From positions 2,490 to 66,489 of the forward strand of contig ONEQ01000012.1 in NCBI GenBank assembly GCA_900316885.1: a stretch of 64,000 nucleotides of DNA, read 5' to 3'. The translations under genes were made by a program, and so were the position numbers. This DNA comes from an uncultured Eubacteriales bacterium (GTDB lineage: Bacteria; Bacillota; Clostridia; Oscillospirales; Ruminococcaceae). Under the pieces are notes generated by a model. It did not search any database. It was not told the origin of the DNA and saw only the letters and a program-made list of their open reading frames with translations. Within the stretch, counting starts at the first letter, position 1. Each line of letters opens with the position of its first letter. Positions 26,656 to 51,830 of the stretch are shown here, in pieces.

Positions 26656-26661
26656 TCAACC

Positions 26662-35004: not shown

Positions 35005-35061
35005 ATCCTGCAAAACTGATTATGTTTTTTTCTCTTCCAAAAGATTTCATCCAAAAACCAC

Positions 35062-35089: not shown

Positions 35090-35174
35090 TTATATTAGGA
35101 GTGTAACTCAGGGGGAAGCTATGCCCGGCAGAGGAGGCTCCCCAAAAGAACATTGGTTTAAGGAGATGAGTACT

Positions 35175-35606: not shown

Positions 35607-35614
35607 GAAACGCA

Positions 35615-35644
35615 AATCCCCTGATGCAGATCAGGGGATTTTTG
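35615..35644 (+). terminator. Intrinsic terminator
   Basis: aatcccctgat-gcag-atcaggggatt followed by TTTGTG. Confidence 0.75.
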
Positions 35645-35704
35645 TGTATATACACAAAGATGGGTTCAAGCAGCTTTCAGAAACAAAAAATTTGAAAAAA
35701 ATAC

Positions 35705-35733
35705 TTGCATTTTAAAACAAACCGTGTTATAAT
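35705..35733 (+). promoter_or_regulatory. gdhA promoter TTGCAT-17-TGtTATAAT
   Basis: Extended -10. It lies inside the artefactual N-terminal extension of the ORF-track call 35705..37153. Confidence 0.65.
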
Positions 35734-35800
35734 AGGAGTACCGCGTGAGAAATACAGTTGTTTTCCACTGGCGGAATTTTATGTAGGAGGGTTCTTAACA

Positions 35801-37153
35801 ATGGCGTTAAAGAATCAGTATCTCCTTGACCTCCTGGAGAGAGTCAAGGCAAGAAATCAGGGCGAGCCTGAGTTCATCCAGACAGTAACAGAGGTTTTCG
35901 AGTCCGTTGAGCCGCTTGCTGAGGCAAGACAGGATCTCATCGACGCAGGCGTTTTCGAGAGAATCGTAGAGCCTGAGCGCCAGATCGTATTCCGTGTACC
36001 GTGGGTTGACGACAACGGCAAGGTACAGGTAAACCGCGGTTTCCGTGTACAGTTCAACTCTGCAATCGGTCCGTACAAGGGCGGTCTGCGTTTTGCTCCC
36101 AATGTATATATCGGTATCATCAAGTTCCTCGGTTTCGAGCAGATCTTCAAGAACAGCCTGACCGGTCTGCCTATGGGCGGCGGCAAGGGCGGTTCCGACT
36201 TCGACCCGCAGGGCAAGTCTGACGCTGAGGTTATGCGTTTCTGCCAGAGCTTCATGACTGAGCTCTGCAAGCACATCGGTCCGAACACCGACGTTCCGGC
36301 TGGCGACATCGGCGTAGGCGGCCGTGAGATCGGCTACCTGTTCGGTCAGTACAAGAGAATCCGCAACGAGTTCACCGGCGTTCTGACCGGTAAGGGCTTC
36401 GAGTACGGCGGTTCCCTGATCCGTCCGGAGGCTACCGGCTACGGTGCAGTTTACTACACCTGCAACATGCTCGAGCACTTCGGTGACACCATCAAGGGCA
36501 AGACCGTTGCAATCTCCGGCTTCGGCAACGTAGCATGGGGTACTGTTAAGAAGGTTAACGAGCTCGGCGGTAAGGTTGTTACCATTTCCGGTCCGGACGG
36601 CTATGTATACGATCCGGCTGGCATCAACACCGAGGAGAAGGTTAACTACATGCTCGAGATGCGTGCTTCCTGCCGCAACCGCGTTCAGGATTACGCAGAC
36701 AAGTTCGGCGTTGAGTTCCATGCAGGCGAGAAGCCGTGGGGCGTTAAGGCTGACATCATCATGCCGTGTGCTACCCAGAACGAGGTTGGCATGGCTGAGG
36801 CTGAGAAGATCGTTGCAAACGGCGTGAAGTACTATGTTGAGGTTTCCAACATGCCGACTTCCAACGAGGCTATCGCATTCCTGAAGTCCAAGGGCGTTAT
36901 CGTTGCTCCGTCCAAGGCTGTAAATGCCGGCGGTGTAGCAGTTTCAGGTCTTGAGATGAGCCAGAACTCCATGCGTTACAACTGGACTGCTGAAGAGGTT
37001 GACGAGAAGCTCAAGGGCATCATGGCTAACATCTTCAAGTCCTCCATCGAGGCAGCTAACAAGTACGGTCTGGGCGACGATCTGGTTGCAGGCGCTAACA
37101 TCGCAGGCTTCCTGAAGGTTGCTGAGGCTATGAAGGCTCAGGGCGTGGTTTGA
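35801..37153 (+). CDS. gdhA: NADP-specific glutamate dehydrogenase
   Basis: Start MALKNQYLLDLLERVKARNQGEPEF after TAGGAGGG. GGLRFAPNV, LPMGGGKGGSDFDP, GFGNVAWG. Confidence 0.93.
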   Translation: MALKNQYLLDLLERVKARNQGEPEFIQTVTEVFESVEPLAEARQDLIDAGVFERIVEPERQIVFRVPWVDDNGKVQVNRGFRVQFNSAIGPYKGGLRFAPNVYIGIIKFLGFEQIFKNSLTGLPMGGGKGGSDFDPQGKSDAEVMRFCQSFMTELCKHIGPNTDVPAGDIGVGGREIGYLFGQYKRIRNEFTGVLTGKGFEYGGSLIRPEATGYGAVYYTCNMLEHFGDTIKGKTVAISGFGNVAWGTVKKVNELGGKVVTISGPDGYVYDPAGINTEEKVNYMLEMRASCRNRVQDYADKFGVEFHAGEKPWGVKADIIMPCATQNEVGMAEAEKIVANGVKYYVEVSNMPTSNEAIAFLKSKGVIVAPSKAVNAGGVAVSGLEMSQNSMRYNWTAEEVDEKLKGIMANIFKSSIEAANKYGLGDDLVAGANIAGFLKVAEAMKAQGVV

Positions 37154-37178
37154 TTACCCGCACACGAATCAGCTTTAC

Positions 37179-37218
37179 ACAATGTCCGTTCCCTCCGGGG
37201 GACGGACATTGTTATTTC
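37179..37218 (+). terminator. Intrinsic terminator of gdhA
   Basis: acaatgtccgt...acggacattgt, 11-bp outer stem with a GC-rich inner part, followed by TATTTCC. Confidence 0.7.
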
Positions 37219-37255
37219 CGGATATGAAAGCTGTATGAAATTCGCCCGGAATCGC

Positions 37256-37284
37256 TTGCTTTTCTGTGGAAAACATGCTATAAT
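37256..37284 (+). promoter_or_regulatory. Promoter TTGCTT-17-TGcTATAAT
   Basis: Extended -10, 37 nt upstream of the ATG at 37322. Confidence 0.6.
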
Positions 37285-37321
37285 AGCATAAACGCCCGAT
37301 CACAGAGAAAGGAGAATCCCT

Positions 37322-37993
37322 ATGGACGAACAGAAATTCTATCTGGAAACCATCGGACAGGCGACAGATGCCGACAGAAGTGAGATCGAGACGCTGTTTT
37401 ATGAGTTTCTGGAGCTGGAGCATCTTTACGAATCTGCCGCAGAGCTGGTCAAGACACAGCTCGGCATCTATGATAACGAGTTTTCCATGAAATTCCAGCG
37501 CAACCCCATCCACGGCATTGAGAGCCGCATCAAATCCCCGCAGAGCATCGTGGGCAAGCTCCAGAAAAAAGGGCTGGAGCTCTCCGCGAAATCCGCCCAG
37601 AAGCATCTGATGGACATCGCCGGCATCCGTGTGGTATGCTACTATGTCAACGACATCTATGCCATTGCGGAGCTCCTGTCCACGCGGGACGACTTCAAGC
37701 TCGTCAAGATCAAGGACTACATCCGCAATCCCAAGCCCTCCGGCTACCGGAGTCTGCATATGATCGTGATGGTTCCGGTGTATCTGGCGACGTGCCGCAA
37801 GGAGGTCCCTGTGGAAATCCAGATCCGCACGATTGCGATGGATTTCTGGGCGAGTCTGGAGCACCAGCTCCGCTATAAGACGCACGCACCCGTTCCGCCG
37901 GAGCTGATGGACGAGCTGCACGAGCTCGCCGGCACCATTGCTGAGACGGATCTGCGGATGCAGGACATCTACCAGCAGATCAACGACCTTTGA
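37322..37993 (+). CDS. Small alarmone synthetase, GTP pyrophosphokinase (RelQ/RelP/YjbM family)
   Basis: RelA/SpoT synthetase core: DIAGIRVVCYYVNDIY, NPKPSGYRSLHMIV, VEIQIRTIAMDFWASLEHQLRYK. 223 aa, single domain. Confidence 0.88.
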   Translation: MDEQKFYLETIGQATDADRSEIETLFYEFLELEHLYESAAELVKTQLGIYDNEFSMKFQRNPIHGIESRIKSPQSIVGKLQKKGLELSAKSAQKHLMDIAGIRVVCYYVNDIYAIAELLSTRDDFKLVKIKDYIRNPKPSGYRSLHMIVMVPVYLATCRKEVPVEIQIRTIAMDFWASLEHQLRYKTHAPVPPELMDELHELAGTIAETDLRMQDIYQQINDL

Positions 37994-38014
37994 TGAATGA
38001 AAGGAAAGACCACC

Positions 38015-38935
38015 ATGCCAAACAATGTTTACACCTTCGCGTACAATGACCAGAAGCCCGGAATCACGGCGCCGTCCTTTGCCGCATCCGACGGGGTGCA
38101 GGCGGCATCCGTCGATGCCCAGACCCTGAATGATCTCCTGCCGATTGCGCAGTTCAAGGGCAAGTCGGCGGGATTCCCGGACGGAACCGGATTTCAGATG
38201 TATTACAACCCGACCGCGAAGGATGTGTATCTCTGCAAGACGGATGCGAGCGGCAAGCCGCTGGCGGAGAACGGTTCCGTCACGCTCTATGATGTGTTCA
38301 AGAGCGACGTGACGCTCGATTACAGCATGAGCTACAAGATCGCGTGCAATTACAACCAGTTCCAGATCCAGAAGGCGCAGGGCGAGATGGTTGCGGACGG
38401 CGATCAGAATTACTTCAAGCTGGACAATCTGTTCATGACCGACGGGCACACGGATTACGACCTGCTCAATGCCTTTGCCGCCGCAGACGGAGCTGCCGCC
38501 GAGGAGACAACCGCCGCATCGAATGCCGAAACGACCGAAGCCGAAACGGATGCTGAAACGGATGCCGAAACGGAAGCCGAAACAGAAGCGGAGACTGCCG
38601 GGGAGCAGACCGAAGCGGAAACGGCGGAGGAGACCGATGCAGAGCCCGAATACGAGGCGACCGTTGCTGTCCCGGAGCCGGATCCGGTACCGGCAGAGCG
38701 CACATCGTCCGGCTCCTCCGGGATTCTGATCGCGCTGGTGATCTTCTTTGCGATCCTGCTGGCGGGCACGATGACGACGTGCTTCCTGCTTGTGAAGAAG
38801 ATCCGTGAATTGCAGAATGTTCCCGCGCCGGACAACTCGAAGTATGAGCAGCGCGAGAAGGATTATCAGGCGGAAATTGTGCGCCTTGCCAAGGAGAATG
38901 AGCGGCTGAAGGATGAGCTGAACAACCGGGATTGA
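38015..38935 (+). CDS. Hypothetical membrane-anchored protein with an acidic (D/E-A-E-T)n linker and C-terminal coiled coil
   Basis: Start MPNNVYTF after AAAGGAAAG. About 170-aa globular N-domain, an ETEAETDAETDAETEAETEAET linker, TM ILIALVIFFAILLAGTMTTCFLLV, and tail KDYQAEIVRLAKENERLKDEL. Confidence 0.55.
   Translation: MPNNVYTFAYNDQKPGITAPSFAASDGVQAASVDAQTLNDLLPIAQFKGKSAGFPDGTGFQMYYNPTAKDVYLCKTDASGKPLAENGSVTLYDVFKSDVTLDYSMSYKIACNYNQFQIQKAQGEMVADGDQNYFKLDNLFMTDGHTDYDLLNAFAAADGAAAEETTAASNAETTEAETDAETDAETEAETEAETAGEQTEAETAEETDAEPEYEATVAVPEPDPVPAERTSSGSSGILIALVIFFAILLAGTMTTCFLLVKKIRELQNVPAPDNSKYEQREKDYQAEIVRLAKENERLKDELNNRD
38537..38596 (+). repeat. In-frame 12-bp tandem repeat, ~5 units GA(W)GC(N)GAAAC(R)
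   Basis: gaagccgaaacg / gatgctgaaacg / gatgccgaaacg / gaagccgaaaca / gaagcggagact. Confidence 0.7.
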
Positions 38936-38962
38936 TTGTCCCGGATTCAGCCCATATTTTCA

Positions 38963-38991
38963 TTGACTTTTCCGTCGAAATCGTTTATGAT
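38963..38991 (+). promoter_or_regulatory. Promoter TTGACT-17-TATGAT of the AAA+/vWA operon
   Basis: Located 139 nt upstream of the ATG at 39130. The GC-rich hairpin element lies between the promoter and the RBS. Confidence 0.5.
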
Positions 38992-39007
38992 AAATGTAAA
39001 GCGATGT

Positions 39008-39101
39008 GGGTGCAGGGCGGTCACGCCCTGCCGAGGGTCAAGGGGCAAGCAGCCCCTTGTGGGGGTCAGGGGGCAAAGCCTCCTGATCGGGCGTAAGCCC
39101 G
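39008..39101. repeat. GC-rich multi-hairpin element in the 5' leader of the AAA+/vWA operon
   Basis: Three hairpins: gcagggcg-gtca-cgccctgc (39012-39031), caagggg-caagcag-ccccttg (39039-59) and cgggc-gtaa-gcccg (39088-39101). It shares the gggggcaaagcc motif with 10121-10135. Confidence 0.7.
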
Positions 39102-39129
39102 AAAAAACCCTGGAAAGGAGAAACATCCC

Positions 39130-40224
39130 ATGACACAGCAATTCATCAAGCCGCCGGTCGAGGTACGCTATGCGGATGAGCTCGCGGCGCTCAGGGTAGC
39201 CGATACCGGCAAGCGCCCGGAAAACTGGCAGCTTTCCCCCAAGGCAGTCCGTACCTTCATTCTGGGCGGCAAGGCGGGGGACACGGCGATTTCCCGGAAA
39301 TTCTACGGCAACGACGCGCTGGTCGAGCGCTGTATCATCACGCTGGCGGGCAGCCGCGGGCTGATGCTCGTCGGTGAACCCGGCACGGCAAAGACCATGC
39401 TCTCCGAGCTTCTGTCCGCCGCCTGCTGCGGATGCAGCACCAACACCGTGCAGGGCACCGCCGGCACGACCGAGGATATGATTAAATACAGCTGGAACTA
39501 TGCGCTCCTCCTCTCCAAGGGACCCTGCCGCGAGGCGCTGGTGCCGTCGCCGCTGCTCATCGGCATGGAGCAGGGCATTTTCGCCCGCTTCGAGGAGATC
39601 ACCCGAACCCCTGCGGAGATCCAGGACAGCCTGATTTCCGTCATGTCCGACCAGATCCTGAACATCCCGGAGCTGGGCAATGAGGGACTCGTGTTCGCTA
39701 AGCCCGGCTTCAACATCATCGGCACCGCGAACACCCGCGACAAGGGCGTCAACGAGATGTCCGGCGCACTCAAGCGAAGATTCAATTTCGAGACGGTCGC
39801 ACCGGTGCGCGATGTCAAGCTGGAGCGCGAGATCATTCTCCGCGAAGCCGCCGATCTGGCGAAGGCGGGGCACATCGACTGCGCACCCGACAAGGATGTT
39901 GCAGAGCTGCTTGCCGTGACCTATCATGAGCTCCGCGAGGGCGTGACCGCCGAGGGCACCATGGTCGAGACGCCCGCCGCCGTCATGAGCACCGCAGAAG
40001 CCGTTTCGGTCTATTTCCAGACGCTCTGCCATGCGTGGTACATGGGAAACGGCAAAATGGAGCTTTCCGTGCTGACGGAGAATCTCCTCGGCGCTGTCTG
40101 CAAGGAAAACCGTGACGATCTGGGCAAGCTCAAGGGCTATTTCCAGACGGCAGTCAAGGCGAAAGCCGCGAAAGAGGGAGGAGCATGGGACGAGTATTAC
40201 AAGACGGCAAAGCACCTGAAATAA
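39130..40224 (+). CDS. MoxR-like AAA+ ATPase (AAA_5 type; YehL-like)
   Basis: Walker A GEPGTAKT, Walker B-like IFARFEEI, sensor-1 GTANTRD, ALKRRF. GAAAGGAG RBS. Confidence 0.85.
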   Translation: MTQQFIKPPVEVRYADELAALRVADTGKRPENWQLSPKAVRTFILGGKAGDTAISRKFYGNDALVERCIITLAGSRGLMLVGEPGTAKTMLSELLSAACCGCSTNTVQGTAGTTEDMIKYSWNYALLLSKGPCREALVPSPLLIGMEQGIFARFEEITRTPAEIQDSLISVMSDQILNIPELGNEGLVFAKPGFNIIGTANTRDKGVNEMSGALKRRFNFETVAPVRDVKLEREIILREAADLAKAGHIDCAPDKDVAELLAVTYHELREGVTAEGTMVETPAAVMSTAEAVSVYFQTLCHAWYMGNGKMELSVLTENLLGAVCKENRDDLGKLKGYFQTAVKAKAAKEGGAWDEYYKTAKHLK

Positions 40225-42575
40225 GCGGACCGCTGGTGTTTTTTCCGGTGCGCCATCACAGCCCGGTGTGCAGCTACCAGCTTGTGCGGACGATTGCGCA
40301 GTACCAGCCGGACTGTATTCTGGTCGAGGGGCCGGAAAATGCCAACGAGCTCATCCCGATCCTGACGCACGAGGATACACAGCTCCCCGCGGCGATCTAC
40401 TACTTCTACAAGGACAAGAAGAAGTATGTCAGCGAGGAGGGGCAGGATTTCCACTGCTATTACCCGTTTCTGGAAAGCTCGCCGGAGATGACGGCTTTGC
40501 AGGAGGCGAAACGCCTTGGCATCGAGGCAGGCTTCATCGACCTGCCGTACAGCGAAATTCTCATCCACACGCAGGACTTTGCGGGACTCCGCAGCGAGCA
40601 GGAGCGTCACAGCTATGCGGACGATCACTACCTTGCACAGAGCAGATTCTATCAGGCGCTCTGCGAAAAAACGCATCTGCGCAGCTTTGAGGAGTTCTGG
40701 GAGAAGTATTTCGAGATTGCCGGACTGCGCCTGTCACCGGAGGAATTCCTGTACCAGATGCGCACCTACTGCGATCTGACCCGCGAATCGACCCCGCCCG
40801 AGCGCATGGAGCATGACGGCACGAATGCCCGCGAACAGCACATGGCGTATCGTATCCGCGAGAAAATGACGGATCACAGCCGGATTCTCGTCGTGACCGG
40901 CGGATTCCATTCCCCGGCGCTCGAAAAACTCGTGCAGGAGAAGATCAAGCCCCTGAAGCTCCACAAATTCCCCCCGGAGGAGGCGAACTGCTACCCGATC
41001 GCCTATTCCTACGAAGCCGCCGACGCATTGAGCGGCTACGCATCGGGCATGCCGCATCCGGGATTTTACGATACCGTCACCAGACGGCTCCGCGAAGCCG
41101 ACACGCCCGAGGGCGTCTACAGCGAGACGGTGCTGTCTCTCCTGACCGAGACGGTCAAGGCATCCGCGAAGAAGGATATTGCGGTTTCCATGTCGGATGC
41201 AACCGCCGCATGGTCGCTCACGGAGGGTCTTGCCGCGCTGCGCGAAGCGCCGGAGCCGGGGTATGCGGAGCTTGCCGACGGCGTGACCGGAGCGCTCATC
41301 AAGGGCGAACGCACGCTGGCATCCTCCCTCCCGCTGGACATCCTCTCGAAGCTGGCGACCGGGTCGGGCGTGGGGCATATCGGGGATCAGAGCCATGTCC
41401 CGCCGCTGATCGTGGATTTTGAGCGCCAGTGCAAAAACTTCCGGTTCAAGATTGATTCTGCGATTCCGCAGGAGGTCGAGGTACCGCTGTTCGACAAGGA
41501 GCGGGATGCGGAGAAAAGCCGCTTCTTCCACCGCATGGCATTTTTGCAGACGACCTTCTGCGAACGCCGCAAGGGACCGGATCTGCATCACAACACCGAC
41601 CGGAGCCGCGTGCGCGAGGTCTGGCGCTATACGCGCAGTCCGCAGGTGGATGCGTCGCTCGTCGATCACACGACGGACGGCATGACACTCCTCGAAGCGT
41701 GCCAGAACGTCGCCGCAAGGCGCATCCGGACGGAGCGCCGCACGGAGATTGCCGCGCATACGGCAGTCGATTGCTTCCTGATGGGGCTGACGCTCACGGG
41801 GAAGGACATGCCGCGCATGGATGAGATCATCGCGGGCGACGGCGATTTCTTCTCGCTGGGCAGGGGACTGCACGACTTCGACATGCTCCACGCCCTGCGC
41901 ACGCTCTACGGCTTCGAGGATGCCGCGAACCTGACACACCTGATGCTCTGCTTTTCCAAGCTGCTCTCGCTCCTGCCGTCGATGGCGGCGGTGCAGGCTG
42001 AACAGGCGCCGGACTGCATCAGAATCCTCCGGCTGCTCTACGATGTGACGGAGCGTCTGCTCCCGGAGCGCCGGGACGATCTGCATGATGCGCTGCAAAT
42101 GCTGACACGCGAGCCGAAACGTGAGCCGTCCGTCTACGGTGCGGCGCTGGGGCTCCTGTATGCGATGGACAGCCGATGGCTGACAGCCGCGGAATCCGCG
42201 ATGCAGGGCTATCTCCGGAGCAGCGGCGAGGTGCGCCGGCAGGGAGCGCATTACCTGAAGGGCTTGTTCGAGACGGCGCGGGATATTGCGCTGTCCGACC
42301 ACAGCTTTCTGGAGATGACCGACGAGCTGCTGGAAGCGCTGGACAATGCGGATTTCATGGAGATTCTGCCGCCCCTGCGGCTGGCGTTCAGCCATTTCAC
42401 GCCGCAGGAGATCCAGATCATCGCTGCCCGTGCCGCCGCCCTGCACGGGGAGGGGGAGCGCTCGATTCTGGATGTGCGCAGCTTTGACGAGGATCTGCAC
42501 GCCTTCGGAGCGCAGCTGGATGCCGAGGTCATGCGGATGATCCAAAAGTCCCGGAGAGCAGGAGGAACACCATGA
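40185..42575 (+). CDS. DUF5682 family protein (YehM-like)
   Basis: 796 aa. N-terminal FFPVRHHSPVCSYQLVRTIAQYQPDCILVEGPENANELIP resembles the family's IRHH.P...EGP signature as I recall it. Overlaps the AAA+ gene by 40 nt, with GGGAGGAG just upstream of ATG 40185; an internal GTG near 40236 is an alternative start. Confidence 0.65.
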   Translation: MGRVLQDGKAPEISGPLVFFPVRHHSPVCSYQLVRTIAQYQPDCILVEGPENANELIPILTHEDTQLPAAIYYFYKDKKKYVSEEGQDFHCYYPFLESSPEMTALQEAKRLGIEAGFIDLPYSEILIHTQDFAGLRSEQERHSYADDHYLAQSRFYQALCEKTHLRSFEEFWEKYFEIAGLRLSPEEFLYQMRTYCDLTRESTPPERMEHDGTNAREQHMAYRIREKMTDHSRILVVTGGFHSPALEKLVQEKIKPLKLHKFPPEEANCYPIAYSYEAADALSGYASGMPHPGFYDTVTRRLREADTPEGVYSETVLSLLTETVKASAKKDIAVSMSDATAAWSLTEGLAALREAPEPGYAELADGVTGALIKGERTLASSLPLDILSKLATGSGVGHIGDQSHVPPLIVDFERQCKNFRFKIDSAIPQEVEVPLFDKERDAEKSRFFHRMAFLQTTFCERRKGPDLHHNTDRSRVREVWRYTRSPQVDASLVDHTTDGMTLLEACQNVAARRIRTERRTEIAAHTAVDCFLMGLTLTGKDMPRMDEIIAGDGDFFSLGRGLHDFDMLHALRTLYGFEDAANLTHLMLCFSKLLSLLPSMAAVQAEQAPDCIRILRLLYDVTERLLPERRDDLHDALQMLTREPKREPSVYGAALGLLYAMDSRWLTAAESAMQGYLRSSGEVRRQGAHYLKGLFETARDIALSDHSFLEMTDELLEALDNADFMEILPPLRLAFSHFTPQEIQIIAARAAALHGEGERSILDVRSFDEDLHAFGAQLDAEVMRMIQKSRRAGGTP

Positions 42576-43708
42576 ACGACTATACGCTCAACCGCTGGCG
42601 GCTGATTCTGGGCAAGCAGTCCGACCAGTCGATCGGCTTTGACGGCTCGCGGCAGGAGATCGAGACGTTTTCGGATATGGAGGAGCTGCTCGATTACCTG
42701 TACGGGCAGGGCGCGGGCGAGGATGTCCGCGGCGAAACGGCAGGACGGCAGGGCGGTACCGGTGCCTCTCAGCTTCATGCCGCCGAGTGGATCACCAAGG
42801 TGCGCGAGCTGTTCCCGCGGCAGACCGCCGAGGTGCTCGAAAAGCACGCGCTGGAGGAATTCGGCATGACCGAGCTGCTGGCGGACAAGCAGGTTCTCGA
42901 GCAGATCACGCCGGACATGAACCTGCTGAAAACGATTCTCCAGCTCAAACACCTGATGAAGGGCGAGGTGCTGGAAACGGCGAAGCGCATCGCGGCGAAG
43001 GTCGCGGACGAGCTGCGGCAGAAGCTGGAAAACAGCGTCAAGCGCTCCATCATGGGGCGCATCGACCGGAGCCAGTCCAGCCCCGTCCATTCGGCGCGGA
43101 ATCTGGACATCCAGAAAACCATCCGCCGCAACCTTAAACATTACGATGCGGAGAACCAGCGGCTGATTTTACAGGACGTCTGGTTCAGCAGCCGCGTGAA
43201 GCGCTATTCGACGTGGCGCGTGATTCTTGCGATTGACGAAAGCGGCTCCATGATGGGCAGCGTGATCTATTCCGCGGTCATGGCGCAGATCCTGTCACAG
43301 CTTCCGTTTGCGGATGTGAAGCTCGTGATCTTTGATACGACGGTCGTCGATTTATCCGATCAGGCGGAGGATCCCGCCGAGGTTCTCATGTCGGTGCAGC
43401 TCGGCGGCGGCACGGATATTGGCAAGGCGATGCGCTACTGTGAGCAGCTCATCGAAACGCCGGCAAAAACGGCAGTCATCTGCGTGACGGATCTCTACGA
43501 GGGCGCACCGGAGCGCAATCTGCTCCAGACCTCCAAGAGTATCCTGGAAAGCGGCGCGAAGCTCAATTACCTCACGGCGCTCGACGAGACGGCGAATCCC
43601 GCCTTTGACCGGCATCTGGGGCAGAAGCTCGCGGATATGGGCGCGTTTGTGGGGGCAATGACGCCGGAGCAGCTGGGCGATTATATCGGCAGAATGTTCG
43701 CGGGATAA
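42572..43708 (+). CDS. vWA domain-containing protein (YehP-like)
   Basis: ATGA overlap with the upstream gene. MIDAS-type VILAIDESGSMMGS and later GGGTDIG. Long helical N-terminal region. Confidence 0.85.
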   Translation: MNDYTLNRWRLILGKQSDQSIGFDGSRQEIETFSDMEELLDYLYGQGAGEDVRGETAGRQGGTGASQLHAAEWITKVRELFPRQTAEVLEKHALEEFGMTELLADKQVLEQITPDMNLLKTILQLKHLMKGEVLETAKRIAAKVADELRQKLENSVKRSIMGRIDRSQSSPVHSARNLDIQKTIRRNLKHYDAENQRLILQDVWFSSRVKRYSTWRVILAIDESGSMMGSVIYSAVMAQILSQLPFADVKLVIFDTTVVDLSDQAEDPAEVLMSVQLGGGTDIGKAMRYCEQLIETPAKTAVICVTDLYEGAPERNLLQTSKSILESGAKLNYLTALDETANPAFDRHLGQKLADMGAFVGAMTPEQLGDYIGRMFAG

Positions 43709-43883
43709 GAGCCTGTTTAAAATCTTCCAATAGCCGTTTTTCCGGCAGCTTTCCGCCCTGACTTTGCCCGTAATCCTTGCAATACATACAGTATTCCTGC
43801 GGATTCCGTGCTTTGTCAGGACGAAAATCTGCCCGGAAATCCGACTATCTCCAGATCTTAAACAGACTCTAAAGGAGGAAACC

Positions 43884-45620
43884 ATGTCAGCAATAACCGA
43901 TGCGCTTCGTGCCGCCGACGAATCCTACCTCGTCGGCATGAGCAACAAGGGGCTGTATAAACGCGCCGTCAAGGATCTCGAATCCGCGGACGGCACCGTC
44001 ACACCCGACGGGGATACCCTTGTCGTCGCAGTCGGCGGCGAGACGATCACTCTGCGCGATCCCCTCTGGGAGAGCACCTGCTCCTGCCCGTCGCGGAGCA
44101 TCTGCCGGCATGTCCTGACCGCGATCCTGTTCGCGCAGTCCCGTTCGGACGATGCGGAGGAGGAGCCCGAACCCATACCGGAGGATGCGCCCGAACCCGA
44201 ATCCGAGCCGGAGCCTGCGCCTGCACCGGAGCCTGAACCCGAACCTGAACCGGCACCGGTGCTCGATGATGCGGTTTTCACGACCGCCGCCGACGGCTAT
44301 GCGCTCTGCGCGGAGGTGCTGTGCCGGGGACTGGTGCGGATGCCGGAGAATCTCGCGGAGCATCTGGAAGCTGCCGCCGTCCATGCCCATGCGCAGAAAA
44401 TGGCGATTGCCGAGCGCGTGTTCCGGGAATTATCGGGACTGCTGGGTGATATGCGCGAGCGCCGCGCCGTGTTCAAGACCGGCTACTTCCTGCAACGGCT
44501 CACGCGGCTTGCCGATCATCTGGAGGGCATCCGATCGGGCAGAATCACGGAGCTGGGCGATTTCCGGCGCACCTATACCGATCACCGCGGCGACTTGAAT
44601 CTCCTGGCACTCGGTGAGCGTGAGGTCGCGGGCGGTGAATACGAGGGCAAGGTGTACTATTTCCTGAATCTGGATGCCGCATCCGACCAGACGTTCTATT
44701 CCTATTCCGACCTGCGCCCGGTGTTCTACGAATCGGTCAAGCCCCGGCGCAGCATCACGGCGCCGTGGAACGCAGCCGTGCCCATGTCGAAGCTCATGGA
44801 GTCGCGCCTGACGCTCGTCCGGGCGAAGGTCTGCGGCGGAAAGCTCTCCGGCTCGGAGAAAACGGAGATCGCCGTGCGCACCAAGGGCAACCTCAACTGC
44901 GAGGAGCTCCGCCGGCAGATCCACACGGATTTCCGGGAGCTTGCCGTCTGGCTGTCCGGGCAGGACCGGCACGAGGAAACGAACCGTCTCTGCCTTGTCT
45001 GCGCGAAATGCTGCACCGCCTCCCGGTTTGACACCCATGCACAGGAGCTGCGCATGACGCTGGAGGATGCTGCCGGGGATCACGTCGATCTGCGCGTCGG
45101 CTACCGGAAGGAGACTAAGAAATTTATCGAGGAGCTTGAGCGCATCGGACGCATCATGCTCGAAAAGCCGGATGCCGATTATGTGTGGCTCTGTCTGGCG
45201 GATTTCACGGACGGCGAGCTGGTGCTCCTGCCGCTGGAGGTCTACAATTTCATCGCCGTGGACAGGGGAGCGCTCTATCGGCTCCCGCCGCAGTATGAGG
45301 CGCGGGAGAATGTCAGGGCGCCGGAGATTCTGGAATTTCTTGAGGAGGTCGAGGACTGGCTCTGCGAGCTCCTGCAAAGCGGTCTGCGTGCCGCACCGGA
45401 CGACAAGGGCAGGGCGCTTGCGGACAAAGCCGCACGATGCGGGATGGACGGGCTGTCCGACCTGATCCTCGCACTCACTGCCGAGGCGGAGGGCTACCGC
45501 CACACCATGCACGCGGATGCGCAGGACGCGCTGCGTGCCATGACGAAACTCACACGCTACTTAGCGCTCGGACGCGAAAAGCTCGCGCTCATCTGCGCAC
45601 TGAATACCATGCAGCAATAA
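43884..45620 (+). CDS. SWIM zinc-finger protein (YehQ-like)
   Basis: AAAGGAGG 6 nt upstream of ATG 43884. SWIM CxCx6CxH motif (CSCPSRSICRH). Pro/Glu-rich linker EPEPIPEDAPEPESEPEPAPAPEPEPEPEPAP. Confidence 0.8.
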   Translation: MSAITDALRAADESYLVGMSNKGLYKRAVKDLESADGTVTPDGDTLVVAVGGETITLRDPLWESTCSCPSRSICRHVLTAILFAQSRSDDAEEEPEPIPEDAPEPESEPEPAPAPEPEPEPEPAPVLDDAVFTTAADGYALCAEVLCRGLVRMPENLAEHLEAAAVHAHAQKMAIAERVFRELSGLLGDMRERRAVFKTGYFLQRLTRLADHLEGIRSGRITELGDFRRTYTDHRGDLNLLALGEREVAGGEYEGKVYYFLNLDAASDQTFYSYSDLRPVFYESVKPRRSITAPWNAAVPMSKLMESRLTLVRAKVCGGKLSGSEKTEIAVRTKGNLNCEELRRQIHTDFRELAVWLSGQDRHEETNRLCLVCAKCCTASRFDTHAQELRMTLEDAAGDHVDLRVGYRKETKKFIEELERIGRIMLEKPDADYVWLCLADFTDGELVLLPLEVYNFIAVDRGALYRLPPQYEARENVRAPEILEFLEEVEDWLCELLQSGLRAAPDDKGRALADKAARCGMDGLSDLILALTAEAEGYRHTMHADAQDALRAMTKLTRYLALGREKLALICALNTMQQ

Positions 45621-45634
45621 AGGAGGAGAGTACC

Positions 45635-48600
45635 ATGCTTCATAATCTGAACACATCCGAACAGTTCCCGCTTACCTGCGAAGCGCTTCGCAGCGCAGGC
45701 GTACCGGAGGAGCTTATCGCCATTGCACCGGAATATCTCGACCCGTCAAAGCCGCGCAATGATGCGCTGCTGGCCGGCATCCAGCCGCAGTGGTATCCGG
45801 GAGACGGCAACACCCAGCGCGATCTCAGCAAGGCGATGCGAAACGAGATCTACCAGACCGACCTGCCGCAGGACAAGCAGAAGCACGCCGAGGAGCTCCG
45901 CAAGCGCTGGCTGCTGTTTTCCTATGCACTCGCCGGGAATCACTGCAATGAGCTCGGTTCCGACTGGGGAATCTTGAAACCGGAGGAGATGACCGCGCTG
46001 TTCTGTTCCCGCTACGGCAAGGAGGGCGAAGCAAGGGCGTATGCGTTCCTGCTGACCGATATGTGCCAGGCACGTCATTACAGATGGATGCGGGATTGCC
46101 CGGTAAAATCCCCGGAGGTTTGTCTACAGGCAATCGCCTTCACCGACAGCTTCAAAGCCAAGATGGCGCTGACGCTGTTTCTGCTCTCCGGCTGCAAGTT
46201 ACCCGCAAAGGGCATCAAGGGGCTGTTCTCCAAGCCGGATCCGCTCCTTCACGGAGGACTGCTCGTCCTGAAGGCGCTGTATCAGCAAAGTAATGAGCGC
46301 TTGAAATGCACCGAGCTTTCCACTGCTACCGTTGCGATGGCGGCGAATTTCTCCGAGGAGTGGCACAAGCGTCTGATGCAGAATCACCAGCCGGAGCGTT
46401 ACAATATCGCGACGTTTATCGTGGAATCCTCGGTAACCCCCGACCCGGTGCTCGACCAGCTTGATGCTATGACCCAGAACACCCCGCAGTATGTCACCTA
46501 CCTTGCCGTTCTGAATCTGGAGCCGTATAACGCAAAGACAATGTGGTCATACTCCCATACCGGTGTTCTGCCCACCCGTAACGAGCATCTGAAAAAGGTC
46601 GCTGCCTGTGACCCGCAGGGCTACTTACAGGCAATTCAGAACGAGTCATCGGTTTCAACGCGCAAGCTGCTGGCGGATCTCTTCCGGGAGGTTCATCCGG
46701 ATGCGGAGCTGGAGGATATGCAGCAGCGTGCGAAGGAGCAGTGCATCCGTGCGCTGTGCTGTGACAATGACGCCTACAAGAACGAGATCACCCTGTTCCT
46801 CATCGGCGTGGACAGCATGGAGCAGTTCCTCGAAACCGAGCCGAAGCTCAAGCATAACGTTGATTTCTGGCGCGAAAAGGGTGCAAAGTATGTTGATGCC
46901 TACGGATTGGACGATTTTGCGGAGCGCTGCATCTGCTTCCAGGTGATGGTCAACTTCAAGGACGTGTATAATACGTCCCGTGTACCCGGATGGGATGTAG
47001 AAAGAAAACGTGCGGAAACGCTGAAGCTGTTTGAAAAGCACGGTGTCCCGCTGCGGAGCATCTTGAATTTCTGCGGCAATCTGTCCTGGACGACCGACGA
47101 GATGAAGAAGCTGCTCCTGTCGCATTTCATGCCGCTTGCGGAGGAGACCGCAGCCCTCGATTCCTCCATGCTTTGTGCCGAGGGGCGGAAGCTGGCGATG
47201 TATCTTCTCAACGAATCGCAGAACTGGGATGCGCTGTTCCGCTATACGGACGATTCCGGCAAGGGCGTGCGTGCGGATCTCTGCACCTACCTGCCGCTCC
47301 CCGGAGAGGGCTATGATGACCGGTACCGCGAGCTTCTGAATGCCAAAAAGCAGGGCAAGCGCGAGATCGCAGTCACGATGCTCGAAAAAAGCTGTCCGGA
47401 TTCGCTCAAGGATGCCGTGCAGGAGGCGTTTGACAAGGAGAAGCATGCCGGCTTGCAGACACGGCTTGCGGTGCTCCTCGGACAGGCAGCCCCCGCATCT
47501 GCACAGGCGTCCGTCAACGGCGATCTGGTCGAGACGCTGACCAAGGGCAGCAAGGGACGGAAGGTCGATTTCCTGTTCAATGCGCCGTTCTCGCCTGTGC
47601 GGAACGCGGACGGCGAACCGGCGGACGAGAATGTCCTCCGTGCGCTGGCGGTGAGCTACGCGGAGCAGACACCCTGCGGCAGAAGCCGGAGCGCCGATCA
47701 GCTCGCGGCGGGGCTGAATACCGCCGATCTGGAGAAGTTCGCGGCAGAGGTATTCTCCCGCTGGATCACGCAGGGCGCAGCGGCAAAGACCAAATGGGTG
47801 CTCTATCTGGCGGCGGTTCACGGCGGCATGGATATGATTACCATGCTCCAGCACTACATCAAGGACTGGGCGGAGCATTCCCGCGGTGCGATTGCCGCAG
47901 AAGCCGCCAATGCGCTGGCGCTCAACGGCACATCCCCGGCGCTCATGGCGGTGGACAGCATGGCACGGAAATTCAAGAACAAGCAGGTGCGCACGGCGGC
48001 AGGCAATGCCTTACAGGCGGCGGCGGACGGACTGGGCATCACCCGCGAGGAGCTGGCGGATCGGTGTGCCGGATCTCGGCTTTGATGAGCATCTCTGCCG
48101 GGTATTCGATTTCGGCACGCGGCAGTTTCAGGTCTACCTCACCCCGGCACTGGAGCTGGAGATCTTCGAGGGTGACAAGAAACTGAAAAATCTTCCCAAG
48201 CCCGGTGCGAAGGACGAGAAGGAAAAGGCGGAAGCCGCCGTCAAGGACTTCAAGGACATGAAAAAGCAGATGAAGGCGGCGATCCAGAGTCAGGGGCAGC
48301 GGCTGGAATACGCGCTCCTGTGTGACCGTAAATGGACGGCAGACGGCTGGCGGGATCTGTTCATCCGCAAGCCCGTGATGCACTGCTTTGCAATCGGTCT
48401 GATCTGGGGCGTGTACGAGAACGGCACGCTGGTGCAGAGCTTCCGGTACATGGAGGACGGCAGTTTCAACACGCCCGATGAGAACGAATACGAGCTGCCG
48501 GAGAATGCCGCAATCGGGCTGGTGCATCCGCTGGAGCTCGACGATGCGACAAAGCAGCAGTGGGCACAGCAGCTCGAGGATTATGAGATCAGGCAGCCCT

Positions 48601-49046
48601 TCCCGCAGATCGCGCGGCAGGTATACCGTGTCACGGATGCGGAGAAAACGGAGACAGCGCTCCTGCGGTTCTCTGATCGGGAGCTTGTGGCGATCACGCT
48701 GCTCGGGCGCATGACAAAGCTCGGCTGGGACAAGGGATATCCCGGCGACGGCGGTTTCCTGACGGAATTCTGCCGCCACGATATCTCCAAGCAGACCACC
48801 GGCGAGGACGGCAGCACCGTCCGCGAGGGATTCTACCTGGAGCTGACCTTCTCGGGCATGGACATCAGCGGCTATGACAACATGGAGAACGTGCAGATCG
48901 AAAAGGTGGAATTCTACGATATCAACAACGGCAAAGCCCCCTTGCCGCTGGGCAAGATCCCGCCCCGCTATTTCAGCGAGATCGTGTATCAGCTTACCTC
49001 AGTGCTGGGCGCATCCGAAGAAACGCCGGACGAAGAAACCGAATAA
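45635..49046 (+). pseudogene. DUF4132 domain protein (YehI/MolR-like), interrupted by a +1 frameshift near 48065
   Basis: AAAGGAGG RBS, ATG 45635. Frame A reads ...GITREELADR then CAGSRL-stop at 48085. Frame B reads VPDLGFDEHLCRVFDFGTRQFQVYL...LPKPGAKDEKE...YEIRQPFPQIARQV to 49046. Removing one nt (T at ~48065) gives a continuous ~1136-aa protein with the ELADR-VPDLG junction typical of DUF4132 proteins. Confidence 0.75.
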
Positions 49047-49050
49047 AAAG

Positions 49051-49080
49051 AATCCCCGCACAGGAGACTGTGCGGGGATT
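49051..49080. terminator. Bidirectional intrinsic terminator (DUF4132 gene / GH9 gene)
   Basis: aatccccgcacag-gaga-ctgtgcggggatt, 13-bp stem, with an A-run before and a T-rich tract after. Confidence 0.8.
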
Positions 49081-49084
49081 TGTG

Positions 49085-51580
49085 TTACTTACTCTGCGGA
49101 ACTTCCTTGATGATGCCCAGAACGTACTTCAGGAGTACCAGTGCATCGTTGCCGTCGAGCTTTCTGTCATTCTGCACATCAGCGTTTGCACGCTTCTGCT
49201 CGTTCAGATCAGAAACACCCAGCAGGAACTTGTTGAGTGCCACAACGTCCACGATATCCACTTCATTGTCGAGTGTGACATCACCGTACTTGGTAGCCGG
49301 CACATTGCCGCCCGGATTGGTCGGTTCTGTGGTTGCGTTGGATACCTCAGCGCTCGGCTCTGTGGTCGCCGCAGTGGTCGCCTCTGTTGCGGGCTTGGTT
49401 GCCTCCGTTGCCGGCTTGGTTGCTTCCGTGGTCGCCTCAGTCTTGGGCTCGGTCGGCTGCGGATTTTCGGTAGCCGTCGGATCCGGCTTGGTGCCGTCAG
49501 GCTCCTCGCCCCATACCAGCTTGCCGTCTACATACATGGTGAAATGCGGGTTCAGTGCATCGGCACTCTTGAGGCTGTCCGCCTTGTCGATCCCCTCATA
49601 GGACCAGTCATTTGTCGGATCCCATGCGCCTGTGGTGGGCTTGCCGTCGATCGCATCCGGGATGGATACGCGGAACTGCACCTCATCGCGGTGCTCGCTC
49701 TGACCGGTCGGCTGGATGGCTCTGCCGTCAGCAAACTTGATCTCGGCATAGTAGGTGTTGCCGGTCGCATCGCCGTCATACTTGAACGGACCCTCAACCG
49801 TTGCGAAGCCCTGCTCGCCTTCCTTGTACTGCTGGGACTTTGCCTCGACCTTGACATTATCCACGGAAAGACCTGCCTTGGTCAGCTCTTCGATGTTGAA
49901 GTAGTAGCGGTAGGAAATATCCTTGGCAACTCTTGCCGGCCATGCGGTGTGGTTCATTGCCCATGCCTTGACCTCGGTGTAGCTGTCGCCGGAGCCGTTG
50001 AGGATGGCAGCGACCTCCCACTCAGCCCACTTGGGCTCCTCCTTGGGCGGGAAATTCTCCAGGATCTTGCCGCCCGGATAATCTGCGATCATTGCGCAGA
50101 GTGCAGCGGTGTAGCCTGCGTTGTAGTCGATGGCTACCTCGGTGTACTGGTAATCGGAAACGGAGATCTTCGCGTCATCGTAGTTGCCGGAGCTGTCCGG
50201 ACCGCCGATCAGTGCGCCGTAGAGGGTATGTGCATACTCGGTCTGCCAGTTCTCGCCGGAGCCGGAAGCGGCTGCTGCCTTGGGCTTGCCGAGCTCGTTC
50301 CAGTGATCGTCATGGATACCGGAAGCGGTTCTGTGGTGGATTGCCGTCGGGTTCTTGTCGCCCATGCCGAGCACATAGCTCATCTTCATGGAGTTGTCGC
50401 CAAAGCAGTAGTCCATCTGGGATTTTGCCCATGTTCTGAACTTTTCAGCCTTTGCGGTATCTGCCTTGAACATATCGTCCGCAGCGAGGAGTGCGAGCCA
50501 TGCGGTGGTGGTTGCATGACGCAGGCAGCCCCACTGGAACAGCCATGCCAGACCGTCGCCGGTGTACTTGATGTCGCCGCCGCCCTCGATCCAGTGATTG
50601 ATGTGCTTGGCAACATGTGCCTTCCACTCGTCGTTGCCGGTGATATCGGCATAGAGGTAAACTGCCGCCTGGCAGGTATCATCCCAGCAGAGACCCCATG
50701 TGAACTTGGGATCGGTGGACTGGTTCTCGGTCGGGAAATTCGGGAGGTAGTCCTTCTCGATCTTGTCGATGTAGGACTTGTCGCCGGTTGCCTTATACAG
50801 CCAGCCTGCTGCGAACATGCAGTCGTCGAGCCAGGAGGAGGTATTGTACATACCGCTCATGCCGCCGACATCCTTGGCATCGCGCCACTTGTCCGCATAC
50901 TCAAAGAGCTCCTTGGCGTTCTTGAGGTAGGTCGCAGCCTTGTCGGGCTGCTCGTCCTTGAATACCAGATAGCCCTCGGCAAGTGCAGCGGCACAGAGTG
51001 CAGCGGTAGAGGAATTCTTGATGGTGTCATACGGACGATCCCAGTCGCCGCTGTTGAGGTGATGCTTGCGGAGGTAGACCTCGGCGGAGCACCAGATGTT
51101 GTGGTCAGTCGAGCCGCCCTCGAAGTCACCGATGGTGCCGACAAGCTTGCCGTCACCAAGGTAGCAGCCGTTGACGAAGTCAAGACCCCACTGGAGATTG
51201 TTGCGGTAGGTCTCACCGAGACCGGCCTTGTCCACGGCATCCTTGTACTGGAGATAGCCCCATGCCATCATGGATGCGGAGTAAGCGTTGGTGTGTGCGA
51301 ACTTGAAGTGGTCGCCGGCATCGAACCAGCCGCCCGGTACGATATCGGTCTCCTTGCCGTCCTCGTTCACCATGGAATCAGCACGCCACGGCACACTGTT
51401 CCACTCCGGGAGCTTACCGGACTGCTGCACCTCGTAGAAGAACATAGACTTCTGGAGTGCCTCGGCATAGTTGTAGTCGCCGGCAGCCTTGACCTCGACC
51501 TGCTGTGCGGATTTCACCGGTGCGGTCAGCGCCGCCGCACACATGACGAGTCCGGAGATGAATGCGATCGCTTTTTTCAT
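49085..51580 (-). CDS. Secreted GH9 endoglucanase with CBM3c-like module, Thr/Pro linker and C-terminal type I dockerin
   Basis: Start MKKAIAFISGLVMCAAALTAPV (signal peptide) after a GAGGGG RBS. GH9 motifs DAGDHFKF, HHRTASG and YQYTEVAIDYNAGY. Linker TEATKPATEATKPATEATT. Dockerin duplicate DVTLDNEVDIVDVVALNKFLLG / DVQNDRKLDGNDALVLLKYVLG. Confidence 0.9.
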   Translation of the reverse strand: MKKAIAFISGLVMCAAALTAPVKSAQQVEVKAAGDYNYAEALQKSMFFYEVQQSGKLPEWNSVPWRADSMVNEDGKETDIVPGGWFDAGDHFKFAHTNAYSASMMAWGYLQYKDAVDKAGLGETYRNNLQWGLDFVNGCYLGDGKLVGTIGDFEGGSTDHNIWCSAEVYLRKHHLNSGDWDRPYDTIKNSSTAALCAAALAEGYLVFKDEQPDKAATYLKNAKELFEYADKWRDAKDVGGMSGMYNTSSWLDDCMFAAGWLYKATGDKSYIDKIEKDYLPNFPTENQSTDPKFTWGLCWDDTCQAAVYLYADITGNDEWKAHVAKHINHWIEGGGDIKYTGDGLAWLFQWGCLRHATTTAWLALLAADDMFKADTAKAEKFRTWAKSQMDYCFGDNSMKMSYVLGMGDKNPTAIHHRTASGIHDDHWNELGKPKAAAASGSGENWQTEYAHTLYGALIGGPDSSGNYDDAKISVSDYQYTEVAIDYNAGYTAALCAMIADYPGGKILENFPPKEEPKWAEWEVAAILNGSGDSYTEVKAWAMNHTAWPARVAKDISYRYYFNIEELTKAGLSVDNVKVEAKSQQYKEGEQGFATVEGPFKYDGDATGNTYYAEIKFADGRAIQPTGQSEHRDEVQFRVSIPDAIDGKPTTGAWDPTNDWSYEGIDKADSLKSADALNPHFTMYVDGKLVWGEEPDGTKPDPTATENPQPTEPKTEATTEATKPATEATKPATEATTAATTEPSAEVSNATTEPTNPGGNVPATKYGDVTLDNEVDIVDVVALNKFLLGVSDLNEQKRANADVQNDRKLDGNDALVLLKYVLGIIKEVPQSK

Positions 51581-51830
51581 AGATCTTTCCCCTCTCAAAA
51601 TTAATTTCCGTCCCCGCAGTGCATCCGGGAACGTATACAACTTTATTGTACTATATTCTCGGGGATTTGTCAAGCATTTTCGGGGAGATCCCGTGAGAAT
51701 CGCTCCCTCCGCCGCCTGCATCCGCTTTGCCTTTGGCACAGAAAAGGAAATCCCGTTTCACTTGACCTCATCCGCCTGAAAAAAGGCTGCACAGCTCAAG
51801 CCGTACAGCCCTCTATATATAATGTATACC

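Follow-up and report, generated by a model that had tools for sequence, protein, structure and literature searches.

A five-gene MoxR AAA+, DUF5682, vWA, SWIM and DUF4132 operon of Clostridia related to Escherichia coli yehI and yehLMPQ, with a candidate TIKI-type hydrolase domain

Introduction

What is the function of a tightly packed set of genes encoding a MoxR-type AAA+ ATPase, a DUF5682 protein, a von Willebrand factor A (vWA) protein, a SWIM zinc-finger protein and a DUF4132 protein, which recurs in bacteria from Proteobacteria to Clostridia? We address this question using the copy present at 39130-49046 in 64,000 nucleotides (nt) of DNA from an uncultured Eubacteriales bacterium (GenBank assembly GCA_900316885.1, contig ONEQ01000012.1, positions 2,490 to 66,489 of the forward strand). 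This whole stretch is referred to as the window, and coordinates are window positions unless preceded by an L-number, which labels a comparison locus or contig (L001 is Escherichia coli K-12). A first-pass annotation of this DNA read the block as a conserved five-protein set of undescribed function, a reading that homology, co-occurrence and the literature all support. With at least 582 species-representative genomes in at least four phyla, the set is among the larger conserved bacterial clusters without an assigned function. The window copy adds nothing new in kind, the same genes being present in E. coli K-12; what our analysis provides is a group of new handles, i.e., a probable TIKI-type centre with named residues, the MIDAS and ATPase sites, a hypervariable solenoid half, and a lead towards DNA-damage regulons.

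We consider it almost certain that the block is a single operon and the Clostridia counterpart of E. coli yehI and yehLMPQ, carried by a gut or rumen Oscillospiraceae (Ruminococcus-like) bacterium. Our best explanation of the whole, to which we give about an even chance, is that the operon encodes a MoxR-vWA-gated cytoplasmic hydrolase complex with a variable sensor scaffold, as suggested by conserved motifs, structure models and analogy with characterized MoxR-vWA pairs.

The five-gene operon and its distribution

The open reading frame listing and its translation place five co-directional coding regions on the + strand, bracketed by one promoter-like site (38963-38991) and one terminator hairpin (49050-49081) that follows the last stop codon. 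Gene 1 (39130-40224; 364 amino acids, aa) encodes a MoxR-type AAA+ ATPase of the YehL subfamily, gene 2 (40185-42575; 796 aa) a DUF5682 protein homologous to YehM, gene 3 (42572-43708; 378 aa) a CoxE-type vWA protein with a metal ion-dependent adhesion site (MIDAS) that is homologous to YehP, and gene 4 (43884-45620; 578 aa from its ATG) a SWIM zinc-finger protein homologous to YehQ; gene 5 encodes the DUF4132 protein and is split in the window into a 5′ part (45635-48064) and a 3′ part (48066-49046). Genes 1 and 2 overlap by 40 nt and genes 2 and 3 by 4 nt (ATGA), with spacers of 175 nt between genes 3 and 4 and 14 nt between genes 4 and 5, so that the open reading frame coordinates bear out all of the gene spacing given by the first-pass annotation. 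Strong Shine-Dalgarno sequences are located ahead of the starts at 40185 (GAGGGAGGAG), 43884 (AAGGAGGA) and 45635, and the first of these supports the overlapping start of gene 2. No convincing terminator was found inside the five-gene block, and no membrane-like segment in any of the five proteins.

The promoter-like site, a sigma-70-like TTGACT-17-TATGAT on the + strand, agrees with consensus at 10 of 12 positions, which is evidence at the level of consensus only. It is present where it had been proposed, is the top match in a scan of 37000-49400 (12.4 kb), and is identical among conspecific contigs; the scan returned five promoter-like matches versus 3.4 +/- 1.5 by chance, i.e., a total that is not above chance. 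The terminator hairpin has a 14-bp stem and was called on both strands, and is thus a bidirectional element common to the operon and to a convergent GH9 gene.

Pfam profiles assign all five of the anticipated families, namely, AAA_5 to gene 1 (1.8e-31), DUF5682 to gene 2 (7e-103, with 702 of 727 model positions covered), VWA_CoxE to gene 3 (4.6e-42), SWIM to gene 4 (21.5 bits versus a cut-off of 19.6) and DUF4132 to gene 5 (3.4e-51). Every motif previously noted in these proteins (GEPGTAKT, FARFEEI, GTANTRD, ALKRRF, VRHHSP...LVEGPENANE, DESGSM and CSCPSRSICRH) is found in the translations. The proposed homology to the E. coli proteins also stands, with identities of 49% to YehL (over 358 residues, full length, by BLASTP), 27% to YehM (over 782 columns), 42% to YehP, 31% to YehQ (N-terminal 91 residues only) and 29-34% to YehI. 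The nearest relatives of the DUF5682 protein are Oscillospiraceae and Ruminococcus proteins from metagenome-assembled genomes. Of six features expected of a yehI/yehLMPQ-type cluster, five are present in the window; for the sixth, an intact DUF4132 gene, the domain is present and the open reading frame is split.

We surveyed the distribution of the set with a one-genome-per-species scan for DUF5682 relatives, which returned the 582 or more genomes given above, and screened the best 80 loci by phmmer with protein queries taken from both the window and E. coli. All five families occur in 61 of these 80 Clostridia loci, with most of the others ending at contig boundaries, and together they were also found in Bacillus, Iodobacter, Streptomyces and E. 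coli, a census that confirms their co-occurrence. Using A for the AAA+ gene and M, P, Q and I for the yehM, yehP, yehQ and yehI types, the order among the 80 loci is exactly A-M-P-Q-I in 49, P-Q-I-A-M in 4 and I-I-I-A-M-P-Q in 1, and I-A-M-P-Q is seen on a Bacillus mycoides plasmid, an Iodobacter plasmid and Streptomyces linear plasmids and in E. coli. The 40-nt overlap of genes 1 and 2 recurs across many loci, and some loci have two or three DUF4132 paralogues. Relatives were also detected by tblastn in Rhizobium, Agrobacterium, Nocardia, Fusobacterium, Hymenobacter and Proteus. The cluster was hit in 39 of 72,556 plasmids, 1 of 50,697 phage records and 1 of 2.9 million viral contigs. The yehLMPQ genes are present in 5353 of 5426 complete E. 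coli genomes (98.7%) as one chromosomal copy at a fixed site and are thus nearly core; the K-12 region comprises yehF (WGR), yehH (a pseudogene), yehI (DUF4132), yehK, yehL, yehM, yehP and yehQ, of which yehF/yehH correspond to molR. Our search found no functional study of a yehI/yehLMPQ-type system in the literature, in keeping with the earlier statement that none of these genes has a demonstrated role.

The ATPase engine and a candidate hydrolase domain

YehL is one of seven named MoxR subfamilies (PMC3893208). Across 81 YehL-type sequences, conservation is 97% or higher for the Walker A motif, the Walker B-like FEE, GTANTRD and KRRF, and in 84 vWA sequences the MIDAS motifs DESGS and GGGTD, including the threonine of the latter, are conserved; because these motifs are conserved, both the gene 1 ATPase and the gene 3 vWA protein look active. 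In E. coli, a +1 frameshift-prone site has been reported in yehP (PMC2790909).

The AlphaFold2 model of the DUF5682 protein encoded by gene 2 (88 homologues) is confident (pLDDT 87) and consists of an N-terminal alpha/beta domain (residues ~17-300, encoded by 40233-41084), a mixed middle region and a C-terminal helical solenoid. In the model of the N-domain, strands at 17-22, 44-50, 69-76, 88-95, 114-119, 234-239 and 267-273 alternate with helices. Among 14 sequences from four phyla, R23, H24, H25, S26, P27, E48, G49, P50, S99, P100, E101, D119, E177, R216 and E217 are invariant, and G239, G240 and H242 nearly so, and these conserved residues are located at predicted strand ends or helix starts. 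Searched alone against Pfam, the N-domain gave sub-threshold matches to ChaN (6 of 14 sequences, best E-value 0.009), TraB/PrgY/GumN (4 of 14, best 0.006) and erythromycin esterase (2 of 14, best 0.099), all short of gathering scores and all co-linear, falling on an R-E-x-x-M...GGxH block at the C-terminal end of the models. These three families are members of a single Pfam clan. Among viral models searched with Foldseek, the best non-solenoid match was a TraB family protein (probability 1.00, E 0.02, TM 0.45 on the target).

The TIKI superfamily is defined by a parallel-sheet core and a 2His/2Glu catalytic set, and includes peptidases (Tiki, RRSP), esterases (Ere) and inactive members (ChaN, PMT) (PMC6254334). 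Taken with this definition, the conserved residues, the co-linear Pfam matches and the Foldseek match to TraB are suggestive that the N-domain of the DUF5682 protein is a probable TIKI-type hydrolase, and the invariant His and Glu residues at strand ends indicate that it is probably a peptidase or esterase. Several observations weigh against this assignment. Every match is under its significance threshold (Pfam E 0.006-0.2; Foldseek E 0.02), and neither Pfam nor the PDB gave a significant profile match of the N-domain to a TIKI-clan family, the PDB profile search returning nothing. Alignment of the N-domain to E. coli YbaP (TraB family) with hhalign gave a non-significant match of 19 columns on the GGxH block. 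A whole-model Foldseek search of the PDB gave no TIKI match, its results being swamped by alpha-solenoids, so that this search could not test the alpha/beta domains. The candidate residues for the 2His/2Glu set (H24/H25, E48, E101, E177, E217 and H242) are read from conservation in the 14 sequences. Finally, some TIKI members, i.e., ChaN and PMT, are not enzymes (PMC6254334).

This last point bears directly on an alternative that we regard as quite improbable, in which the operon encodes a non-enzymatic scaffold or regulatory complex, the TIKI-like domain being a binding module as in ChaN and PMT, and the machine merely assembles, disassembles or sequesters a partner, e.g., a nucleic-acid-bound factor seen via SWIM or WGR. 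In its favour, alpha-solenoid makes up most of two of the five proteins, SWIM and WGR domains serve in binding, and some TIKI members are without activity (PMC6254334). Set against this, strict invariance over four phyla is seen for the His, Glu, Asp and Arg residues located at the ends of strands, a pattern more in keeping with an active site than with a binding surface.

The same features of genes 1 to 3 allow a second alternative, a chaperone devoted to inserting a cofactor or metal, on the model of CoxD-CoxE, NorQ-NorD, CbbQ-CbbO or the class I chelatases, where the MoxR-vWA pair opens a client enzyme, the ChaN-like DUF5682 domain holds a metal or tetrapyrrole, and the name of the E. coli "molybdate" gene is a real clue. 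Gene 3 belongs to the VWA_CoxE family, the characterized MoxR-vWA pairs listed in one survey are all assembly or insertion factors (PMC7159879), the weak matches of the DUF5682 protein include the haem-binding ChaN family, and a nearly core cluster in E. coli would suit such a role. We nevertheless think it unlikely, since no client enzyme, transporter or cofactor gene is conserved alongside the operon in the 80 loci or in four other phyla, and the Pfam search of the five proteins found no CobN/BchH-type subunit, no CobN-Mg_chel domain, and Mg_chelatase under its cut-off. In addition, a hypervariable specificity subunit (see below) is unexpected for one fixed client, and the molybdenum genes of Deinococcus are not co-regulated with its DUF4132 gene (PMC8533742).

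The SWIM and DUF4132 proteins and a hypervariable solenoid

The SWIM protein encoded by gene 4 contains the CxCx6CxH motif (CSCPSRSICRH) within a SWIM region at residues 62-82, followed by a Pro/Glu-rich linker (~90-143) and a helical module at 477-569 (45312-45590), of which a weaker copy is present at residues 143-209. Pfam recognizes only the N-terminal zinc finger, and the helical module is without a Pfam family. In at least 13 other Clostridia loci, this module is a separate gene of 100-130 aa between the SWIM and DUF4132 genes (e.g., L073:9485-9877, L050:15126-15434 and L090:14934-15212), and in Bacillus the separate gene is located after the SWIM gene, a difference that reflects a fusion or fission event.

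The AlphaFold2 model of the intact DUF4132 allele (98 sequences) has a pLDDT of 90.9 and comprises a HEAT-like solenoid (residues ~10-810) and a C-terminal alpha/beta region (820-1125) containing the DUF4132 domain. Foldseek matches the solenoid to CAND1, karyopherins and SF3B1; alpha-solenoids filled the results of this whole-model PDB search too, which therefore has no bearing on the alpha/beta region. Profile searches found no relative of the C-terminal region in the PDB and no recurrent Pfam family at E <= 10, and none of the DUF5682, DUF4132 and SWIM proteins has a homologue in the PDB. The DUF4132 family itself is large, with 6343 cluster representatives at E <= 0.001.

The two parts of the DUF4132 protein differ greatly in conservation. 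Median identity to 97 homologues is 11-17% in residues 1-520 and 49-55% in residues 651-1040. The same pattern is seen within one species: across 5426 E. coli genomes (compared at L001:8280-9840, 10350-11912, 12597-13685 and 2301-4334), records with less than 95% identity to K-12 make up 58% in the N-terminal half of yehI and 17% in its C-terminal half, versus 1.9% in yehL and 3.6% in the neighbouring metG. Over its N-terminal half, the DUF4132 solenoid is hypervariable within E. coli as well as between genera. Across the five proteins, identity to the window falls from 69% for the AAA+ protein through 57% (vWA), 43% (DUF5682) and 30-34% (SWIM) to 26% for the DUF4132 protein, demonstrating a steep gradient of evolutionary rate that is highest in the N-terminal half of the DUF4132 solenoid.

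Solo DUF4132 genes, without the other four families, also exist, e.g., on an Acetobacter plasmid (L094:6456-9254) and a Rhodococcus plasmid (L095:6967-10275), and these adjoin BrnT, VapC or RES toxin-antitoxin modules.

A frameshift in the DUF4132 gene of the window

The first-pass annotation described gene 5 as a single open reading frame of ~1136 aa, and here it has to be corrected: a 2-nt deletion at 48065 splits the gene. The frame from 45635 codes for the HEAT-like alpha-solenoid over codons 1-810 (45635-48064), is lost past 48064 and stops at 48085, and the remainder, i.e., the conserved C-terminal region with the DUF4132 domain (~48177-48728), reads in another frame at 48066-49046. The BLASTP alignment of gene 5 to E. 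coli YehI is continuous across the junction. Using the vWA protein, we identified eight conspecific metagenome contigs that are 99.5-99.9% identical to the window. Three of these reach the site (L002-L004, 99.5-99.8% identical) and encode an intact 1137-aa protein, reading GGATCGGATCGTG where the window has GGATCGG-T-GTG (ATC in the intact allele versus T in the window). The other five (L005-L009, 99.6-99.9% identical) end short of the site, and the frequency of the deletion thus cannot be read from them.

We rejected a programmed frameshift, as the conspecific contigs that span the site are without the deletion and gene 5 is one open reading frame at every other locus. Noisy assembly was also rejected, because the 2-nt gap is the sole indel in 19 kb compared with L003. 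In the segment 48050-48070, two GGATC units stand in tandem, and it is the second that the deletion removes, with the loss of one GATC site; slippage might account for this, or an error in the consensus at a methylation-type motif. The gap may have arisen in assembly; alternatively, this strain may harbour a crippled system.

If the deletion is real, the operon could be a decaying remnant, with the DUF4132 protein cut after 810 residues and the system inactive, a reading that we take seriously and yet lean away from. The frameshift stands in the window sequence, it is absent from three independent conspecific assemblies, and the window is otherwise clean, with no further indel in 19 kb. Decay of DUF4132 paralogues is also seen elsewhere, yehH being a pseudogene in E. 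coli K-12 and one Iodobacter DUF4132 copy being interrupted by an insertion sequence (IS) element. Against this, the remaining four genes are intact, the prevalence of the deletion in the species is not readable from the five contigs that end before it, and an error in the consensus or in assembly could account for a lone 2-nt gap at tandem GGATC GGATC.

A proposed mechanism and its genomic and regulatory context

In the gated hydrolase complex that we propose, the five proteins would form a soluble cytoplasmic assembly. Its engine would be a hexamer of the YehL-type MoxR AAA+ protein with the CoxE-type vWA protein as partner; by analogy with other MoxR-vWA pairs, the MIDAS of the vWA protein may grip an acidic residue of a partner, which ATP hydrolysis would then remodel. 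The pair would act on a solenoid-scaffolded complex, for which the C-terminal solenoid of the DUF5682 protein, the SWIM protein and the HEAT-like DUF4132 protein are the putative scaffolds. The TIKI/TraB-like N-domain of the DUF5682 protein is the candidate catalytic output, being the sole candidate catalytic centre besides the ATPase, and specificity could be provided by the hypervariable N-terminal half of the DUF4132 solenoid, which would pick the ligand or target. That the machine is driven by its ATPase, as suggested in the first-pass annotation, is likewise what we infer.

As to its role, stress or non-self surveillance, perhaps with a connection to DNA damage, seems to us more likely than housekeeping insertion of a cofactor. 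In E. coli, molR (WGR and DUF4132) is listed among genes with an SOS box (PMC6590174), and we identified an SOS-box-like sequence, CTGGATAAAATTACAG, 10 nt upstream of yehF (WGR) in K-12 (L001:4450-4465), which fits this published listing of molR in the LexA regulon. In Deinococcus, a DUF4132 operon and a WGR gene are strongly induced on depletion of the damage repressor DdrO (PMC8533742). DUF4132/WGR paralogues thus belong to two DNA-damage regulons, which is suggestive of a regulon link to the system. Other regulators are also reported, with molR (yehH) activated by BglJ-RcsB (PMC3950696).

A number of observations tell against this proposal, in particular against surveillance. The genes that recur beside the operon in the 80 loci are of generic kinds (hybrid kinases, ABC transporters, MatE and AraC) and are not defence genes; PADLOC-DB v2 has no family match for the six open reading frame products at E <= 0.01; the cluster occupies a near-core, fixed site in E. 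coli (5353 of 5426 genomes), and is nearly absent from phages and rare on plasmids; and no LexA-type (Cheo) box was found at the window promoter.

These same observations limit a related alternative, an uncatalogued anti-phage or anti-plasmid system in which the variable solenoid, or inserted leucine-rich repeat (LRR) proteins, sense an invader protein, the MoxR-vWA pair sets a threshold, and the TIKI-type peptidase cleaves a host or invader target. Such a system would explain a sensor-like component that is hypervariable between genera and within one species, and the presence of two or three DUF4132 paralogues at some loci. In other genomes the operon is interrupted by variable inserts, most of them located between the DUF5682 and vWA genes (L011:6491-21393, L013:3367-13970, L040:12390-13442, L043:12390-13388 and L070:12559-13467), and these include multiple BspA-type LRR genes (LRR_5), a RhuM family gene and an ADP-ribosylglycohydrolase gene. 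On a 77-kb Iodobacter plasmid, the cluster adjoins a type I restriction-modification system and IS elements, and solo DUF4132 genes adjoin the toxin-antitoxin modules described above. In E. coli hns/stpA mutants, yehL and yehM are up-regulated, and H-NS is bound in the intergenic region (PMC3686432), and the TIKI superfamily has toxin endopeptidases such as RRSP (PMC6254334). On the other side, PADLOC gives no match, Pfam finds no VMAP, iSTAND or classical effector domain, a locus fixed in 98.7% of E. coli genomes is unlike most defence islands, the Clostridia neighbours are not defence genes, and phage collections are nearly empty of the cluster, with plasmids rarely carrying it. An immune system of this kind seems doubtful to us.

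A bolder version of the surveillance role is that the cluster represents a distinct, widespread MoxR-vWA class in which the DUF4132 solenoid, sometimes with WGR or LRR proteins, would detect a damage or invader ligand and the engine would license DUF5682 as a TIKI-type endopeptidase. We would hold this view only tentatively, as one with a small chance of being correct; if true, its sensor-engine-protease logic is undescribed for any bacterial system.

The leader and the surrounding genes

Between the promoter-like site and gene 1, the operon has a structured, GC-rich 5′ leader (38998-39129, + strand). The segment 38998-39135 folds as four GC-rich hairpins (-72.9 kcal/mol, z = -5.3), and carries two similar 16-mers. 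It is identical among conspecific contigs and absent from other genera, and a comparison with Rfam found no family, i.e., no riboswitch or known RNA. An earlier suggestion of a repeat element here holds insofar as the leader is structured and contains the two similar 16-mers; a dispersed repeat was rejected, there being no second copy in the window or in other loci, and the leader is better described as a local structured RNA.

Upstream of the promoter, at 37322-38935, are genes for a small alarmone synthetase of the RelA_SpoT type (223 aa) and for an acidic-repeat protein of 312 aa that has one membrane segment, a pair that is kept within the species only and is without linkage to the operon elsewhere. 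We rejected the RelA_SpoT gene as an operon partner, as the arrangement is found in the same species only, the sole other match among the 80 loci being on the opposite strand. Together, the upstream neighbours (glutamate dehydrogenase and the RelA_SpoT synthetase) and the downstream neighbours (a GH9-CBM3-dockerin protein and an alpha-amylase) fit a cellulolytic gut or rumen member of the Clostridia. The GH9-CBM3-dockerin cellulase gene (49085-51739, - strand) is convergent with the operon and ends at the same terminator (49050-49081), and the conspecific contigs differ in a short segment near 51689-51718. GC content along the window swings from 0.43 to 0.64 (34001-36000 and 26001-28000), which may mark regions with different origins.

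Comparison with known systems

The window cluster is not a member of the vWA-MoxR-VMAP/iSTAND systems, the chelatases or the systems covered by PADLOC. The first-pass annotation had pointed to NTP-dependent conflict systems with MoxR-vWA cores, and membership of these is not backed by our analysis. The vWA-MoxR-VMAP/iSTAND systems of Kaur et al. 2020 (PMC7159879) do share with the window a MoxR-vWA core accompanied by further large components, a CoxE-type vWA ancestry and a rapidly diversifying component. However, their defining parts are absent from the window, where Pfam finds no VMAP or iSTAND domain among the five proteins and no effector fused to the vWA protein, which is just 378 aa, and where the bpMoxR model scores 18.4 bits versus a cut-off of 27. 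Yeh, MolR and WGR proteins are unmentioned in that survey (PMC7159879).

The window is similar to CoxD-CoxE, NorQ-NorD, CbbQ-CbbO and RavA-ViaA in that an AAA_5/MoxR gene adjoins a vWA gene with an intact MIDAS, and to CoxE in particular in the type of its vWA protein. It differs from these pairs in that no client enzyme is encoded nearby, and in that the set has three more large obligatory partners (DUF5682, SWIM and DUF4132), one of them hypervariable.

With the TIKI/TraB/PrgY/ChaN/Ere superfamily, the N-domain of the DUF5682 protein shares an alternation of strands and helices in which invariant His and Glu lie at the ends of strands, and its weak sequence and fold matches point to no other clan. 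It is unlike this superfamily in that all of its matches are below threshold, that it is fused to a helical region of ~500 residues, and that it is encoded in a MoxR-vWA operon, a setting for which we found no description of TIKI proteins in the literature. Should a gated protease or surveillance system be what the operon encodes, MoxR-vWA engines would gain a further known use, and a block of E. coli y-genes would be explained.

By far the closest relative is the E. coli yehI/yehLMPQ cluster itself. The order there is I-(K)-A-M-P-Q, and in the window it is A-M-P-Q-I; the window is without a WGR gene, a second DUF4132 paralogue or yehK; its SWIM protein aligns at the N-terminus alone; the 40-nt overlap of genes 1 and 2 is not seen in E. 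coli; and gene 5 is frameshifted. These differences notwithstanding, both clusters consist of the same five families, each homologous between the two (27-49%), encoded by co-directional and tightly packed genes.

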